Notes: generated from the sequence alone by a model not told the origin. A stretch of 46,010 bases of DNA from an uncultured Gammaproteobacteria bacterium (GCA_964504665.1 CAZDEH010000005.1:1-46010), one strand, 5' to 3'. Positions 303-7,408 are shown, counted from the stretch's first letter. Program-made: numbers and translations.

Positions 303-332
303 TTGACTAGGACGTACGTAATAACGTACAAT
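303..332 (+). promoter_or_regulatory. Sigma70 promoter and probable operator of the TA operon
   Basis: TTGACT-18-TACAAT, 6 nt before ATG 339; palindrome ACGTACGT (312-319) and a second ACGTAC (324-329). Confidence 0.65.
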
Positions 333-338
333 CATTTC

Positions 339-656
339 ATGACTACAGTTTCTGTGACTACAGCCCGTGATAATTTATATGATTTAATAGAAGAAGTTGC
401 CAGGAGTGGTAAAAGCATTGGTATTACCAATAAAGGTGAAACAAAGGCAGTTTTAGTTAATCCTGATGAATTAGCTTCTTGGGAAGCCACTCTGGATGTA
501 ATGTCTGATCCAAATTTAGTCAAATCTATTAAAGAAAGTGAAAAAGATATAAAATCTGGAAGATATGTGACTTGGGATGAGCTAAAAAAGGAGCTTAGTT
601 TAGATGCATCAGATAAGATTCACAAGGCGCGCCGAAAAGGACTTAAGAAAACTTAA
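339..656 (+). CDS. Phd/YefM-family antitoxin
   Basis: MTTVSVTTARDNLYDLIEEV...IGITNKGETKAVLV Phd-fold pattern; start moved to ATG 339. Confidence 0.9.
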   Translation: MTTVSVTTARDNLYDLIEEVARSGKSIGITNKGETKAVLVNPDELASWEATLDVMSDPNLVKSIKESEKDIKSGRYVTWDELKKELSLDASDKIHKARRKGLKKT

Positions 657-858
657 TAAAATTTATTTACCTAAGGTTAGTAAGTCTTTTGAGGCTTTAC
701 AATTAAATCCCCTTCTGGGTCAAAAAATGAGCGGAGAATTTGATGGATCATATCGAATTAAAATTCCTCCGATCAGGATTATCTATTTTCCAGATTTTAA
801 AAATAAAGTTATATGGATTGAGGCGATTGGACAAAGACAAGGAATTTATAAAAATTGA
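604..858 (+). CDS. RelE/ParE-family toxin
   Basis: IRFTRRAEKDLRKL...NPLLGQKMSG...YRIKIPPIRIIY...IGQRQGIYK; overlaps the antitoxin. Confidence 0.88.
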   Translation: MHQIRFTRRAEKDLRKLNKIYLPKVSKSFEALQLNPLLGQKMSGEFDGSYRIKIPPIRIIYFPDFKNKVIWIEAIGQRQGIYKN

Positions 859-875
859 TATTACTCAAAAAATAA

Positions 876-915
876 TAGAAACTTCAGGCTTTACAGGCAG
901 AGTAGAACACTAAAT
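876..915 (+). repeat. 40-bp direct repeat, copy 1
   Basis: tagaaacttcaggctttacaggcagagtagaacactaaat; 32/40 identical to 1813-1852. Confidence 0.8.
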
Positions 916-2271: not shown

Positions 2272-2314
2272 AACTTACCAGCTTCAGTTGAGCTGGATTT
2301 TTAGAGGATTATAT

Positions 2315-3499
2315 ATGGCAGACCAGAAAAAATTTGATAGATCAAAACCACACGTAAATATTGGTACTATTGGTCATGTTGACCATGGTAAAACGACTTT
2401 AACCGCAGCTATTACCAAAGTTTTAGCTTCTAAAGGTTTAGCTGAAGCCCGTTCCATAGATCAAATTGATGCTGCACCTGAGGAAAAAGCCCGCGGTATT
2501 ACAATTAATATTTCCCACCAGGAATATGAAACAGAGAAAAGGCATTACGCCCACATCGATATGCCGGGTCATGCTGACTATATTAAAAACATGATTACCG
2601 GCGCAGCCCAAACAGACGGGGCAATTTTAGTAGTTTCTGCTCCTGATGGTCCGATGCCACAAACCAGAGAACATATTTTACTTGCAAGACAGGTAGGAGT
2701 TCCGGCTATTGTGGTTTATCTGAATAAGTGCGATATGGTTGATGACGCTGAGCTTTTAGACCTAGTTGAAGAAGAGATTAGAGATTTACTGAAAAAATAT
2801 GAATATGATCCTAAATCACCAATTATTAGAGGCAGTGCTAAAAAAGCCTTAGAAGGCGATCCTGAAGCAATTAAATCTATTGAAGCTCTTATGGATGCAG
2901 TAGATGAATGGATTCCAACTCCAGTTAGAGATACAGATAAACCATTTTTGATGGCTGTGGAAGATGTTTTCTCTATTAAAGGGCGTGGAACCGTAGTTAC
3001 CGGTAGAATTGAAAGAGGGAAGATTAAAGTTAATGAAGAAATTGAAATTGTCGGAATTAGACCAACTAAGAAAAGTATTGTAACTGGAATAGAAATGTTT
3101 CACAAAATGCTTGATGATGGTCAGGCTGGGGATAATGCCGGAATATTACTCCGCGGTATTGAAAAAGATGATGTAGAACGCGGCCAAGTTTTAGCAAAAA
3201 CTGGTTCAATTACTCCACATGCTGAGTTTGAAGCAGAAGTTTATGTTTTAAGTAAAGAAGAAGGTGGAAGACACACTCCATTTTTTAAGGGTTATAGACC
3301 ACAATTTTATGTCAGAACCACTGATGTGACCGGTGAAGTGATTTTACCAGAAGGAGTAGAGATGGTGATGCCGGGAGATACTACAAAAATAAACGCTAAA
3401 CTTATTACCCCTGTTGCTATGGAAGAAGGACTCCGTTTTGCTATCCGTGAAGGTGGTAAAACAGTGGGAGCAGGAGTTATTACTAAGATCATTAAATAA
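2315..3499 (+). CDS. tuf: Elongation factor Tu
   Basis: [31 protein letters not shown]; start set at ATG 2315. Confidence 0.99.
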
Positions 3500-3525
3500 T
3501 GATTCTTGTAAGAAAAGAAAAAATA

Positions 3526-3548
3526 GGGGGCTAAAAAGCCCCTTTTTT
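3526..3548 (+). terminator. Intrinsic terminator after tuf
   Basis: GGGGCT-AAAA-AGCCCC followed by TTTTTT. Confidence 0.8.
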
Positions 3549-3590: not shown

Positions 3591-3663
3591 AGGAGGAGGT
3601 AGTGATGGACGATCTGGCTGCGAAGATTAAATAGCAGCTAAAAGATAAGTCCAGATCTGTCCA
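3591..3663 (+). promoter_or_regulatory. Structured rpsJ leader with SD-led mini-ORF (3605-3634, MDDLAAKIK*)
   Basis: AGGAGGAGGT at 3591; stem tggacgatctgg(3606-3617)/ccagatctgtcca(3651-3663); TG-n-TAAAAT at 3566-3574. Confidence 0.5.
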
Positions 3664-3671
3664 AATTAATT

Positions 3672-3980
3672 ATGGCAAAAGGACGCATCAGAGTAAAACT
3701 GAAAAGTTACGATCATAGGGTACTTGATAGTACTGTAGAGCAATTACTTGATACTGCTCTTAGAACCGGTGCTAAAATTGTTGGTCCCATACCTCTTCCT
3801 ACTAAAACTTCCAGATTTACCATGCCCCGTTCCCCTTTCACAGATAAAGATTCCCAGGAAGCTTTCGAAATTAAAATTCATAAAAGACTGATAGAAATAG
3901 TAGAACCGACAGATAAGACCATAGACTCTCTGATGCATTTAGAACTACCTGCAGGAGTTGACATAGAAGTCAAGATGTAA
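3672..3980 (+). CDS. rpsJ: 30S ribosomal protein S10
   Basis: IRVKLKSYDH, GPIPLPT, HKRLI, LPAGVDIEVK. Confidence 0.99.
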   Translation: MAKGRIRVKLKSYDHRVLDSTVEQLLDTALRTGAKIVGPIPLPTKTSRFTMPRSPFTDKDSQEAFEIKIHKRLIEIVEPTDKTIDSLMHLELPAGVDIEVKM

Positions 3981-3993
3981 TACACCTAAAGTA

Positions 3994-4275
3994 ATGGGCA
4001 ATAGAGCTGAAAGCCCCCTTTTTATCATTTCTGATTCCAGATTAAGACAGCAAGAGATGGTTGAATTTGCAACTAGCATGACTTCCAGTTTTGGGTTGGT
4101 TTCAATCAAAGATGCAGAAAAACAAATTGCAGAATGGTATTTTAGAAGGCATGTACCCATCCCACTGTTAACCGAATTAACAGGTCTATATATCAGACCA
4201 TTCTGGAGAGATGGTAACGTTACTCCCTCTTTAAAACCTACACTTCCGAGAGGGTATTATTCGCATCATTATTAG
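3994..4275 (+). CDS. Hypothetical protein
   Basis: 93-aa ORF immediately after rpsJ; no recognisable family. Confidence 0.5.
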   Translation: MGNRAESPLFIISDSRLRQQEMVEFATSMTSSFGLVSIKDAEKQIAEWYFRRHVPIPLLTELTGLYIRPFWRDGNVTPSLKPTLPRGYYSHHY

Positions 4276-4300
4276 AAGTCTCATCTGCGATGAAATAAAA

Positions 4301-4321
4301 CCCACTCGAGGGGTGGAATAG
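4301..4321. repeat. REP-like hairpin, type A
   Basis: cccactcgaggggtggaatag, directly downstream of the transposase stop. Confidence 0.75.
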
Positions 4322-4329
4322 ATTGGCAC

Positions 4330-5004
4330 CTATTCTTCTATAATTAAATGCTTGATCTTATCTAGTTCCTGAGAATAAGATATTTGGTCAAAAACAAAAT
4401 TTTTGTAATCATTTACAGAGTGAAATTGTTTAGTTATTATTTCCTTTTGGCAGAATGCTTCTTCTGATTCTAAATATTCTTTTAATGAGGACCAGGGGTA
4501 AGATTCAAGTCCCTTTTCTTTAATAATATATGATGTAACTGGATTCAGGTGAATATATCTGGATAAATGGATCAACTGTTCATTAGACTCAATATAAACA
4601 GACTTGAATGGTCCTTGAATCAGAGAACCGTTTCAGTCATGTTTTGTATTGAAATATTTAGTGTAACTGTTTGTAAAATTGGCTATAAAAGTTGATATGC
4701 CATTATCACTTAATTGTTTTATTAAGAAATGAAAATGATTAGGCATTAAACAAAAACTGACAATATCAACAAGTTTATTTCCAGGTTTAACAATCTGGGT
4801 AAGAATTTTTTCTTGATTTTGTGGAGTTTGGACAAGAAATTTAGAGAACTTTATAGCAAGGTTTCTATATTGGTAGTACTTTAAGGTACCTAGGGCACGT
4901 TTGTATTCTCTCTTGTCAGTAAAAATATCTCTTTTTTCTACACCTCTATTAAATATATGGTAGAATTGGTCGTTTGCTAGTATTGTTTTTCTTAATGTTG
5001 CCAC
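4330..5004 (-). pseudogene. REP-associated tyrosine transposase (RAYT, Y1 HUH) interrupted by in-frame TGA at 4633-4635
   Basis: YHIFNRGVEK, FCLMPNHFH (HUH), KYFNTKHD*NGSLIQGPFKS...RYIHLNPV, YPWSS all in one frame across the stop. Confidence 0.9.
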
Positions 5005-5048
5005 GATAATTATATGTAATCATATCAAATGAAGGGTGTCAAGCTAAA

Positions 5049-5078
5049 CCACCCGAGGGGTGGGCTACCCTATACTCG
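5049..5078 (-). repeat. REP-like hairpin, type B (GTAG-led on the minus strand)
   Basis: ccacccgaggggtgggctaccctatactcg; minus strand reads GTAG-cccacccctcgggtgg. Confidence 0.85.
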
Positions 5079-5132
5079 ATTTAATACTAGTACTTGACAG
5101 CAAATATTATTAGAGTTAAATATAATATATAG

Positions 5133-5306
5133 GTGAAAAAATCTGCTCAACAAGGAATTACAGCAATTTATTTTATTTTACTGCTAACAGTTCTTTGTTT
5201 ACTTGCTTTCTTTGTGCTTACCCAGTTTATGCCTTTTAGCGGCGAACTAAATGCTCTACTTTTTCCCAAACAAGAATCTAAAGCTGTTGACTGGGCTTTG
5301 TGGTAA
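5133..5306 (+). CDS. 57-aa prepilin-like signal/TM peptide, possibly a truncated secreted protein (absent from ORF track)
   Basis: GTG start; MKKSAQQG|ITAIYFILLLTVLCLLAFFVLTQFMPFSGELNALLFPKQESKAVDWALW*; TATAAT 6 nt upstream. Confidence 0.55.
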   Translation: MKKSAQQGITAIYFILLLTVLCLLAFFVLTQFMPFSGELNALLFPKQESKAVDWALW

Positions 5307-5384
5307 TCTTCCCTGTGTTGATGTAACAAAAGACTTAATCTGATCAAAATCTCTTTCCTAAAAACTCCCAACATATCATGGTTC

Positions 5385-5412
5385 TTGACTTCCTGAAAAG
5401 ATATCTTATAAT
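5385..5412 (+). promoter_or_regulatory. Sigma70 promoter
   Basis: TTGACT-16-TATAAT upstream of ORF 5432. Confidence 0.65.
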
Positions 5413-5431
5413 TAACGAAAGTTTTTGATTT

Positions 5432-5923
5432 ATGGAAAGATCTACTCTCAGTATGTTAATTGTTGATGAGGATGACCACTGGATTAAAGCTGTTCATAGC
5501 GTGGCTGAGTCTCTTAATTTTGACCCAATAGATATTGCACATTCTCAAGAAGAAGCTTTAGCAAGCGATGTTTATGAGTTATTCTTTGGAGGAGCTTTAG
5601 CATCCCGCGTTTTTTATGATTTAAGTATTGTAGGAGTGTCTGTTGGTAGAGAAATTTTAATATGTGCCCGCGCGTTAAGATTGGCCACTATAGATTGGCG
5701 TTATCGTTTGGGTATTGGGCAAAAAGGTGTAGGAGCTATTGTTGCTGCTTCGGCTACAGGTAAACCTGAAATAGCTCGTGAGGCTTTAAGACCTGTTAAT
5801 GGTGGGTCCATTGCTGATGATATTATTATGAAAAGCTTACAGCCTGAAAAGTTAGCTCCTTATTTTAGAGATTATAAAGCATTTTTACTGGAAGAAAAAC
5901 AAAGAGCTGGAATTGAAAGCTAA
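5432..5923 (+). CDS. Degenerate receiver (REC)-like domain protein
   Basis: MLIVDEDD, AHSQEEAL, YDLSIVG, IVAASA, ADDIIMKS follow CheY-fold landmarks; expected phospho-Asp position is Gly. Confidence 0.6.
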   Translation: MERSTLSMLIVDEDDHWIKAVHSVAESLNFDPIDIAHSQEEALASDVYELFFGGALASRVFYDLSIVGVSVGREILICARALRLATIDWRYRLGIGQKGVGAIVAASATGKPEIAREALRPVNGGSIADDIIMKSLQPEKLAPYFRDYKAFLLEEKQRAGIES

Positions 5924-5934
5924 TAACTAAATTC

Positions 5935-5964
5935 CCACCCGAGGGGTGGGCTACCATATACTCG
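5935..5964 (-). repeat. REP-like hairpin, type B, second copy
   Basis: 29/30 identical to 5049-5078. Confidence 0.88.
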
Positions 5965-5983
5965 TCGAGATTCCTCAGAATGA

Positions 5984-6015
5984 CAGGATATTGACATTAG
6001 AATGAAGATGTAATA
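5984..6015 (+). repeat. Degenerate copy of the rpsJ 3' end, doubling as a promoter
   Basis: ttgacattagaatgaagatgtaata vs rpsJ ttgacatagaagtcaagatgtaata (20/25 ungapped), both preceded by cagga; TTGACA-17-TATAAA. Confidence 0.65.
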
Positions 6016-6025
6016 TAAATTGAGC

Positions 6026-6333
6026 ATGCCTGATAGATTACCTGCATACCCGAGAGATATCGAGAGACGTCCAGACATAGATAGGGGAATTTCCCCTCTT
6101 TTAGCCAAAGAGAATTGACTAGGATTCAAAGATTATTCAGAGATGAGAGATTTCCAGAACGACCTCGCTTGTTTTTTACCGAAGAAGTCTTTAATCCTGC
6201 CTCAGATTGGGATAGATTTAGGAAAGAGGCTTTTCGAAGAATACCGGGTACGGTAAAAATTTGTACAAGTGATATTGAGGTTCAGCTTAGAGGTCAAGGA
6301 ACTTTAGACCCAATCGGTAATAATGAAGATTAG
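6026..6333 (+). pseudogene. Orphan gene, probably frameshifted near 6105-6115
   Basis: ATG 6026 ORF (MPDRLPAYPRDIERRP...) stops at 6118 while ORF 6115-6333 continues in the -1 frame. Confidence 0.45.
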
Positions 6334-6344
6334 TTATGAAATAT

Positions 6345-6364
6345 CCGTCCGAAGGGTGGAATAG
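6345..6364. repeat. REP-like hairpin, type A, degenerate
   Basis: ccgtccgaagggtggaatag, preceded by atgaaata as is the copy at 4290-4321. Confidence 0.6.
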
Positions 6365-6371
6365 TTAAAGG

Positions 6372-6401
6372 TTGCAATTTAGGTTCACTTCGTGCTAAAA
6401 T
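6372..6401 (+). promoter_or_regulatory. Promoter for the rplC-led operon
   Basis: TTGCAA-18-TAAAAT with TG extension. Confidence 0.55.
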
Positions 6402-6464
6402 TCCTATATACCATGCGAATGGTTTTAACTTAACAAAACAAGAAATAATTTCAGTAGATCGCGC

Positions 6465-6493
6465 GTCCCCCTTCGCTATAGCTACGGAGGGAC
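6465..6493. repeat. GC-rich hairpin element in the rplC leader
   Basis: gtcccccttcgctatagctacggagggac; related sequence inside rplC at 7331-7390. Confidence 0.6.
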
Positions 6494-6544
6494 AAGTCGG
6501 ATCAGACAGGTGATACGGCGATTTGATAAAAAAAGCGATATACT

Positions 6545-6568
6545 GGGTCGAAGTTTCGGCCCTTTTTT
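6545..6568 (+). terminator. Terminator-like hairpin in the rplC leader (candidate attenuator)
   Basis: GGGTCGA-AGTT-TCGGCCC-TTTTTT ending 15 nt before the rplC ATG. Confidence 0.65.
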
Positions 6569-6583
6569 GTGTTTTAAAAAACA

Positions 6584-7408
6584 ATGATAAATACATTATT
6601 TGGTATAAAACGGAATATGACATCCAGTTATGATGCCCGCGGCAGACGGACGGGTGTCACCGTACTCGAGATTCAACCAAATATAGTTACCCAAATTAAA
6701 TCAGTGGACAGTAAAGATGGATATAATGCAATCCAAATCGGAGTAGGCCACAAAAAATCAATCAAAAAACCTCAGATCGGACATGCTGCTAAAGCTGGAA
6801 TAGACAAAAAACTCAGATGGTTTAGAGAAGTCAGAGAATCAGATGAAAATTTAGAACCTGGTCAAGAAATAACAATAGACCAGGTTTTTTCTAAGGGTAA
6901 CTCAGTCAAAATTACCGGTATTTCTAAAGGAAAAGGTTTTCAAGGTGGAGTCAGACGTCATGGTTTTCATGGCGGACCAAAAACCCACGGTCAATCAGAT
7001 CGTCACCGTGCTCCCGGTTCTATCGGATCCGGAACTACCCCGGGAAGGGTGTTAAAAGGTAAAAAAATGGCCGGACATATGGGGAACGAAACTTCCTCTG
7101 TAAAAAATTTAGAAGTTGTTGCAGTTGATAAAAAAGAAAATTTATTGTTAGTAAAAGGAGCGATCCCTGGTTTTTCCGGAGGTTTAGTGCAAATTACTAA
7201 ACTTGGACATATTAAAGGCTATACTCCTCCACCTGAGGAAAAAGAAGAAGAGTCGGAGGAGGAATTAAGCGTTGAGAATCAAGGATTAAGTGAGGAAAAA
7301 GTGGAAACAACAGAAAAAGTTGAAGGAGAATCCTCCTCCGCTGACAGCCGTCGGTCAGAGCCTATGGCGTCGGACGAAGCTACGAAGGACAAGGAAAATG
7401 CCAGTTAA
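6584..7408 (+). CDS. rplC: 50S ribosomal protein L3 with acidic C-terminal tail
   Basis: DGYNAIQ, GKGFQG, THGQSDRHRAPGSIG, MAGHMG. Confidence 0.99.
   Translation: MINTLFGIKRNMTSSYDARGRRTGVTVLEIQPNIVTQIKSVDSKDGYNAIQIGVGHKKSIKKPQIGHAAKAGIDKKLRWFREVRESDENLEPGQEITIDQVFSKGNSVKITGISKGKGFQGGVRRHGFHGGPKTHGQSDRHRAPGSIGSGTTPGRVLKGKKMAGHMGNETSSVKNLEVVAVDKKENLLLVKGAIPGFSGGLVQITKLGHIKGYTPPPEEKEEESEEELSVENQGLSEEKVETTEKVEGESSSADSRRSEPMASDEATKDKENAS

Follow-up and report, generated by a model that had tools for sequence, protein, structure and literature searches.

A second rpsJ tail downstream of rpsJ

We analyzed the region between the genes rpsJ and rplC in the first 46,010 nt of contig C5 (further referred to as the window). 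The source bacterium is tiny and comes from groundwater, and its genome has approximately 1 Mb, 36% G+C and 42 contigs. In this region a complete rpsJ, whose protein product is 100% identical to its counterpart in the closed genome G001 of the same genus, is followed by small open reading frames (ORFs), a transposase gene and GC hairpins, and then by rplC (Table 1). We observed that the 3' end of rpsJ is present twice, the second time as a decayed relic 2 kb downstream. A previous, sequence-only reading of the window had pointed to such a degenerate copy, and we confirmed it together with the number of identical positions and the spacing of the motifs.

Positions 5991-6015 are identical to 3958-3982 in 20 of 25 nt without gaps, and a gapped alignment leads from 3952-3984 to 5984-6016; the direct repeats that bound the insert are 31-33 nt long. 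The relic reads in frame as QDIDIRMKM-stop and its frame is broken upstream. It aligned also to the rpsJ tails of G002, a further genome of the same genus (score 32), and of G004 (score 29). TTGACA occurs in both copies, at 3958 and 5991, and an ATG follows 36 and 35 nt later (3994 and 6026).

For the assessment of this match, we compared the last 40 nt of rpsJ with both strands of the genome, cut into 14,290 overlapping pieces of 200 nt. The relic gave the top non-self score genome-wide (35, with the 99.9th percentile at 24), on the right strand and within 2 kb of the gene. There were no shuffles of 5965-6030 that reached this score (0 of 5000). The runner-up, with a score of 33, was a coding coincidence (PAGVEI within an acetyltransferase). 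Among the 561 TTGACA sites of the genome the relic has the best-matching flanks (29, next 21), and therefore promoter consensus alone does not explain the similarity.

Further, we compared the window with contigs from two public groundwater runs, which may include the source sample (depth 3-5). The junctions were spanned without differences at 3775-4073, 3970-4143 and 5809-6055; the last span, a contig of run X3, passes over the entire relic. We also considered that the assembly had joined strain bubbles one after the other, and rejected such an artefact because the junctions are independently bridged by these contigs. Moreover, the left edges of the relics of this genome are followed within 4-11 nt by the first differences to the working tails, contrary to what joins at shared k-mers would leave. 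Altogether, it is hardly credible that the relic arose by chance, reflects the promoter consensus in both places or is an artefact of assembling a metagenome bin of low coverage. A chance match of score 33 does exist in the genome, the coverage by the runs is low and the genome-wide excess of relics described below is missing in the closed G001. The scar, however, is replicated in nine other assemblies, and G001 itself holds one relic of this kind, in YchF. As a possible third tail copy we considered positions 5094-5129, by hairpin B, which are colinear with 5984-6017 (score 25, reached in 8 of 2000 shuffles), a similarity which also counts in favour of chance; against the rpsJ tail itself the score of this stretch was below 23.

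Both genes could be placed in 14 family genomes including this one; three more genomes run off the fetched stretch. The rpsJ-rplC spacer has 180-293 nt in seven of the 14 (G017, G010, G009, G007, G002 with 243 nt, G014 and G003), 819-1140 nt in five, 2165 nt in G004 and 2607 nt in the window. Only rpsJ and the last approximately 210 nt before rplC, which hold the promoter, leader and terminator, are conserved across the family. Since the spacer varies across the family, the site is a hot spot for variable DNA. As judged by this comparison, approximately 2 kb of accessory DNA was inserted between rpsJ and rplC, with the relic as its distal edge. This agrees with the earlier proposal of an entry of DNA at the rpsJ terminus, with the end of the gene repeated where the insert stops. 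The G+C content of the insert (34.8%) is close to that of the window (35.4%). We found no similarity between the stretches that follow the two tails, 3984-4290 and 6016-6338 (score 5 against a shuffle mean of 6.7, no tblastx match), and therefore the two orphan ORFs behind them are not copies of one gene.

Table 1. Features of the window around rpsJ and of the fusA relic
Feature	Position	Strand	Remarks
Two overlapping small ORFs just before the fusA relic	303..858	+	antitoxin-toxin look, by sequence reading
fusA (EF-G) tail relic	857..913	+	in frame, reads ITQKIIETSGFTGRVEH-stop; second scar in the window
tuf	2288-3499		followed by terminator 3525-3544
rpsJ (ribosomal protein S10)	3672..3980	+	complete, 102 aa; PF00338, E 9e-35; ends VDIEVKM-stop
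Working rpsJ tail, proximal copy	3952..3984	+	last codons, stop and 4 nt
Orphan ORF, 93 aa, first cargo	3994..4275	+	no Pfam family
GC hairpin A, REP-like (repetitive extragenic palindrome)	4301..4317		followed by ATTGGCACC; 3' flank of Y1 gene
IS200/RAYT-like (REP-associated tyrosine transposase) Y1 HUH transposase gene	4330..5004	-	PF01797; in-frame TGA at 4633-4635
GC hairpin B	5049..5065		read on the minus strand, followed by TTGACA-17-TATAAT before the Y1 gene
Cargo ORF, 57 aa	5133..5306	+	hydrophobic stretch; no Pfam family
Orphan cargo ORF, 163 aa	5432..5923	+	behind promoter-like site 5385-5412; no Pfam family
Solitary hairpin B'	5934..5964		29/30 identical to B; 12 nt past the 163-aa ORF
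Decayed rpsJ-tail relic	5984..6016	+	28 identical positions, three 1-nt indels, stop retained
Non-conserved DNA with ORFs 6026-6118 and 6115-6333	6026..6333	+	missing from short spacers of relatives; no Pfam family; probably an older insert
Hairpin-like copy A'	6343..6364		similar to A (CGAAGGGTGGAATAG)
Native part of the spacer	6372..6562	+	promoter-like TTGCAA-18-TAAAAT, conserved leader, intrinsic terminator 6545-6562
rplC (L3)	6584..7408	+	opens the remaining S10 operon; PF00297; tblastn

Second rpsJ tails in related genomes

In a first pass over 17 genomes, a significant copy of the rpsJ tail was present in the spacer only in this window and in G018. The copy of G018 is clean and in frame (LPVGVDIEVKM-stop) and lies 494 nt past the working tail. 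We then ran a codon-degenerate pattern for GVDIEVKM-stop over 96 genomes of the order. It matched in 93 of them, while the reversed pattern used as a control gave no match in all 96. The pattern occurred twice on the same contig and strand, at a distance of 112-1203 nt, in G018, G042, G056, G058, G076, G079, G081, G082 and G084. Second rpsJ tails are thus present in 9 of the 95 other genomes of the order, or in 10 of 96 with this window.

In all nine genomes the first copy closes a full-length rpsJ and the second one is an in-frame fragment of 10-22 codons with the stop (9-21 residues). The length of these relics varies between 27 and 66 nt including the stop codon, which speaks against one fixed attachment core. 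We compared the 148 duplicated codons of the nine pairs and observed that 64 were identical, 78 differed synonymously and 6 non-synonymously (nucleotide differences at codon positions 1/2/3: 13/9/79). Because the pattern itself selects intact last codons, we recounted the codons upstream of it, with a similar result (25 identical, 39 synonymous, 3 non-synonymous; 12/4/40). The copies of clean pairs are 70-85% identical, and diverged pairs share identical runs of at most approximately 8-12 nt.

Copies made in place would begin identical, and the unused one would then decay randomly. Here both copies look as if shaped by long purifying selection and the divergence is nearly all synonymous. Therefore the two tails were separate functional alleles of rpsJ, a native and an incoming one, and not a fresh target duplication. 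In this respect our results depart from the sequence-only reading, in which the target was duplicated at insertion. Compared with the clean pairs of the relatives, the relic of the window is an older, decayed example.

The cargo between the two tails was unrelated between genomes, with the exception of one Sigma70_r4 pair, and some inserts of relatives have just 49-105 nt. There were 47 ORFs of at least 60 aa in the cargo of relatives; in the 23 that we scanned no recombinase scored above the cut-off. The matches in the cargo of relatives were two Sigma70_r4, DUF1554, DUF2283, an HSP70-like protein and a matrixin-like peptidase.

We noted several peculiarities of individual pairs. The relics of G018 (L005 2266-2301) and G056 (L094) share an alanine-to-valine change (LPVGVDIEVKM), and PAG was present in all working tails checked upstream of the pattern (17 family genomes and the nine pairs). 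In G058 (L095 1078-1219) both tails carry aspartate changed to asparagine (GVNIEVKM), which occurs in no other searched genome, and 18 of the 22 codons differ synonymously. In G058 (L095 1038-1116) and G076 (L096 1217-1306) the insert begins right after the working rpsJ stop and opens with nucleotides that are reverse-complementary to the initial 10-13 nt of the duplicated segment. The resulting long stem around the working tail has z = -4.6 in G058 and z = -2.3 in G076. In G082 the stem contains a compensatory A/T swap, and it is not part of the minimum-energy fold. We also considered G006 as the donor to G082, as its working tail is similar to the deviant one of G082 (EIKT), but the DNA past rpsJ of G006 is unlike the insert of G082 and this candidate was rejected.

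Gene-tail relics in the rest of the genome

We compared the last 40 nt of 731 ORFs (out of 945 defined by a simple longest-ORF rule) with the 3 kb downstream on the same strand. Three controls were used: the upstream sequence of the same strand and, on the opposite strand, the flank on either side. At a score of at least 34 there were 13 cases, and 0, 0 and 0 in the controls; at a score of at least 30 there were 21 cases versus 5, 5 and 1. With a second scoring scheme 19 cases reached the threshold versus 1, 2 and 0. We did not observe any excess for 5' ends of genes (11, of which three were script errors at contig edges, versus 9, 2 and 4) or for gene middles (4 versus 6, 1 and 5).

We accepted 11 of the 13 top cases, rpsJ included. 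Case 12 (C1 7152-7571) was a low-complexity false positive and case 6, a 19-nt match, was doubtful. The other hosts were AlaRS, FtsH, FtsK, RecF, a ComF-like phosphoribosyltransferase, a prepilin peptidase, an epimerase, a GT2 glycosyltransferase, a large LamG protein and a TRAM-domain protein. The duplicated length was 19-140 nt. The distal copies are in frame as C-termini, mostly with the stop at or near the same place. The cargo comprised Gp49 with HTH_3, YafQ with RelB, HicA with HicB-like partners, ParE with RHH, KilA-N, AAA_14/DUF4143, a formyltransferase and a PfkB kinase, and toxin-antitoxin pairs were often bracketed by scars. Matching sites in G001 were empty or shorter. An accretion of genes at the 3' ends of essential translation genes had been suggested earlier. 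Such a pattern does hold for 3' ends of genes throughout this genome; the restriction to translation genes does not hold, as the hosts include FtsH, FtsK, RecF, the prepilin peptidase and the epimerase.

The window contains a second scar, a relic of the fusA tail, presumably what the earlier mention of fusA-like repeats referred to. It is identical to the working fusA tail on contig C32 in 49 of 55 nt, and its 17 codons comprise 10 identical, 6 synonymous and 1 non-synonymous. In G001 we found a 79-nt relic of the YchF tail with synonymous differences (920733-919627 and 627 nt downstream). In the same genome a 37-nt direct repeat of the rplC promoter region, 86% identical, surrounds a 500-bp insert (L002 2065-2101 / 2565-2601), which holds one minus-strand membrane ORF.

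Origin of the second tails

We observed the relic, the insertion relative to kin, the recurrence of second tails and the synonymous-only divergence of the clean pairs directly. For the direction (which copy was native), the donor and the enzymology we propose the following course. In our opinion, the DNA was probably captured from a relative by recombination of the host, and the old rpsJ tail was displaced in the process. The incoming accessory DNA of approximately 2 kb, most likely from a related lineage, would have brought its own version of the last codons to the rpsJ terminus, and the working rpsJ would now end in the incoming tail or in a hybrid of both. The relic at 5984-6016 would be the old end, left at the far edge of the insert and decaying. 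Homologous pairing in a conserved gene (tuf-rpsJ) may have taken place on one side and a non-homologous joint inside the recipient tail on the other. This could proceed through homology-facilitated illegitimate recombination after DNA uptake, or through repair of a break close to the gene end that was copied from foreign DNA. Neither a dedicated integrase nor a transposase would be needed, and repeated events would stack cargo behind core genes.

The genome encodes ComEC, DprA and RecA, and a prepilin peptidase and a ComF-like gene are present. Natural competence is described for Patescibacteria in at least one account (PMC12455944). No integrase was found in the insert by a Pfam scan; the two PF00589 genes of the genome lie elsewhere, there is no PF00239 gene, and Y1_Tnp genes are present in 10 copies.

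Several observations weigh against capture by host recombination. ComEC and DprA were matched in non-competent control genomes too. The choice of the native copy and the non-homologous joint are both inferred. The relic of the window is too decayed to display the synonymous pattern itself, and the closed G001 has no downstream excess (8 versus 10, 3 and 7). Moreover, the boundary is exactly identical in G058, G076 and G082. All 10 rpsJ relics have at most 66 nt in a gene of 309 nt, and it is only at 3' ends that an excess was seen. Such a bias is not an obvious outcome of random one-sided joints; it would fit a process, or a break, directed to the ends of genes. Two rivals, namely integrative elements and breaks at hairpins, stay in consideration because of the strong bias to 3' ends, within the last 20-140 nt, and because of the boundary shared by three genomes.

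According to the first of them, the scars are remnants of site-specific integrative elements that carried a copy of the gene end in their attachment site. The two tails would then be attL and attR, and the integrase and most genes would have been lost, with toxin-antitoxin pairs and orphans left behind. Such elements would account for the strict 3'-end specificity without any excess at 5' ends or gene middles, for the reuse of the rpsJ tail in 10 of 96 genomes and for cargo typical of mobile DNA (toxin-antitoxin pairs, KilA-N, AAA_14/DUF4143). A foreign tail carried by the element also predicts diverged tails, and the alanine-to-valine change shared by the relics of G018 and G056 was in no working tail examined upstream of the pattern. 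We nevertheless consider this origin unlikely. There was no integrase in the insert, in the other cases of the genome or in the 23 cargo ORFs of relatives, and the boundaries vary between 27 and 66 nt, with one shared by three of nine genomes. Inserts of 49-105 nt and cargo unrelated between genomes, except for the Sigma70_r4 pair, do not fit it either. In the run contigs over 3600-6700 we found no joint skipping from 3984 to 6016 and no circular form, which counts little and is uninformative on excision, as rare variants are lost from contigs and the depth was 3-5.

The bias to 3' ends would be accounted for as well if RAYT/IS200-like Y1 enzymes broke REP-like hairpins close behind gene ends and the repair copied a foreign or ectopic template. 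We regard this as very unlikely. In its favour, there are 10 Y1_Tnp genes and dispersed GC hairpins in the genome, hairpin B' lies 20-35 nt before the relic, and in G018 a hairpin precedes the relic by 6 nt. Hairpins make up the short inserts of G058 and G076, which open with the reverse complement of the duplication boundary. However, no hairpin adjoins the relics of G042, G056 and G081 or most other cases of this genome, and hairpins are common behind genes anyway.

A broader version combines hairpin breaks with DNA from relatives. Here, the last codons of core genes would be reusable, integrase-free landing pads, in which breaks at REP hairpins cut by Y1 enzymes are repaired from the DNA of relatives, and this would be the main route by which accessory genes are gained and shuffled in this lineage of ultra-small bacteria. 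Each repair would install a foreign tail with cargo and push the old tail downstream, and intact second tails may be retained to allow clean loss or exchange of a cassette. We hold so far-reaching a scheme to be doubtful, with only a slim chance of being correct.

The sequence-only reading had itself proposed a transposition-like insertion at the ends of essential translation genes, with a fresh target duplication, a promoter built on TTGACA and a so far undescribed accretion system. The duplicated target, the stacked cargo, the TTGACA in both copies with an ATG 35-36 nt on and the copy of the fusA tail in the same window agree with this model, and long target duplications of which the mechanism was not known are on record (PMC2853133). 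We find it improbable, because 78 synonymous versus 6 non-synonymous codons in the clean pairs indicate that neither copy was made from the other at the site. Moreover, the duplicated length is not fixed in this genome and the hosts extend beyond translation genes. The idea that the gene end supplies a -35 box was not borne out: TTGACA represents the codons V-D-I, many working tails of relatives lack it and read GTTGATAT, and neither TTGACA site was listed in the promoter consensus scan. The sole transposase gene in the region is the dead Y1 gene with its own hairpin ends. The classical transposon signature, a fixed short target duplication by terminal inverted repeats, was absent, and no shared ends were seen.

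Comparison with known systems

Insertion with long target duplication was reportedly described by Nobusato et al. in 2000. Furuta, Abe and Kobayashi (2010) presented restriction-modification genes between long direct repeats, mostly 93-100% identical (PMC2853133). The cases described there were mostly from naturally competent species, some repeats overlapped 3' ends of genes and the mechanism was not known (PMC2853133). As in those cases, which lack mobility genes of their own, accessory cargo of addiction type lies here between long repeats of variable length, with one copy in the empty genome. In our insert there is no integrase, and there is a dead Y1 transposase cassette with its own hairpin ends. 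The insert is absent at the site of relatives, and the repeats exceed 30 bp and align to a single target copy. In contrast to the described cases, the cargo here consists of toxin-antitoxin pairs and orphans, and in nearly all cases the terminal 20-140 nt of a core gene were hit. Near-identity of young repeats was not observed in the intact-looking pairs of the nine relatives: the identity of clean copies is no more than 70-85%, with the differences at synonymous sites, and therefore a true duplication at insertion is unlikely.

A second parallel comes from the loci of type VI secretion system (T6SS) effectors and immunity proteins, Rhs and contact-dependent inhibition (CDI), in which sequential displacement leaves orphan 3' ends (Kirchberger et al. 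2017, PMC5361080). For the displacement in T6SS and Rhs loci the authors proposed homology-facilitated illegitimate recombination (PMC5361080). In the loci of that account, as here, a module enters behind a conserved region, the old 3' end and its neighbour are shifted downstream, and arrays arise by repetition. The variable 3' part described for T6SS and Rhs is a functional toxin domain followed by an immunity gene, whereas here the displaced piece consists of a few functionless housekeeping codons.

A segment duplication that flanks an insert also results from a Campbell-type event: a single crossover of circles duplicates the homologous segment, 109-950 bp in the experiments of Amarir-Bouhram et al. 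(2011, PMC3240628). Such an event, as presented there, requires a crossover inside the duplicated segment, whereas the diverged tails here share identical runs of at most approximately 8-12 nt.

Site-specific integration into 3' ends of genes is well known from islands in tRNA and tmRNA genes, from e14 in icd and from streptococcal elements in rpsI, rplL and rpmG. Such islands have a second gene end on their far side, and the replacement end carried by the element may differ at silent sites. The scars described here differ from them, as there is no integrase and no fixed core and the inserts are as short as 49 nt. REP/RAYT systems are known as REPtrons. The Y1 HUH gene bracketed by inverted GC hairpins and the solitary hairpin copies behind ORFs resemble them. 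This likeness concerns the passenger of the insert and not the duplication; there are 10 family copies here, of which this one is dead.

Among the papers listed in the literature search, none linked Patescibacteria or the candidate phyla radiation (CPR) with illegitimate recombination, target duplication or gene remnants. The scar is a recombination footprint of a known kind which is unusually common in this bacterium and its relatives. A claim of an undescribed system is not warranted, as the pattern corresponds both to insertion with long target duplication (PMC2853133) and to orphan 3' ends (PMC5361080) in the form presented in these sources. What stands out is the density: approximately every tenth genome of the order has a second rpsJ tail, and there are two scars in the window and a dozen per megabase in this genome. 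Through the synonymous divergence of the clean pairs, these sites document how accessory genes of relatives are gained, without enzymes of mobile elements, by streamlined and uncultured bacteria that are probably competent. The sites also offer concrete junctions for testing the long-unexplained insertion with long target duplication. In annotation, relics of gene tails should not be called genes or promoters.

Other features of the rpsJ-rplC region

The ORFs of the insert and its surroundings are mostly orphans. A single homologue with 70% identity was found for the 93-aa ORF among 5.8 billion proteins. In the protein search the 163-aa ORF had no homologue apart from itself, and the 72-aa ORF in 6026-6333 had none. 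The promoter-like site before the 163-aa ORF has 11 of 12 matches in a consensus scan. Near the start of the 93-aa ORF, 18 nt (4006-4023) resemble the tuf terminator in its 3' half (3530-3547) at 83% identity, possibly by chance.

The Y1 gene of the window is the sole copy with a stop among the 10 of the genome, the other nine being intact. It is dead and carries its own hairpin ends. The gene lies between inverted GC hairpins with inward-pointing TTGACA-type boxes, and there are two further solitary hairpin copies just behind ORFs. The Y1 HUH domain is thus flanked on both sides by inverted hairpins, as in a REPtron. Hairpins were taken from a strict list (30 matches), as a looser pattern gave 282 mostly irrelevant matches.

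No Rfam family was detected in the rpsJ-rplC region. The promoter-like site, leader and terminator stand directly before rplC, and therefore rpsJ is transcribed apart from rplC. These elements (6372-6583), with a leader of approximately 100 nt, are kept in 13-14 family genomes and show a few compensatory pairs. This region may be an undescribed leader or attenuator of ribosomal protein genes.

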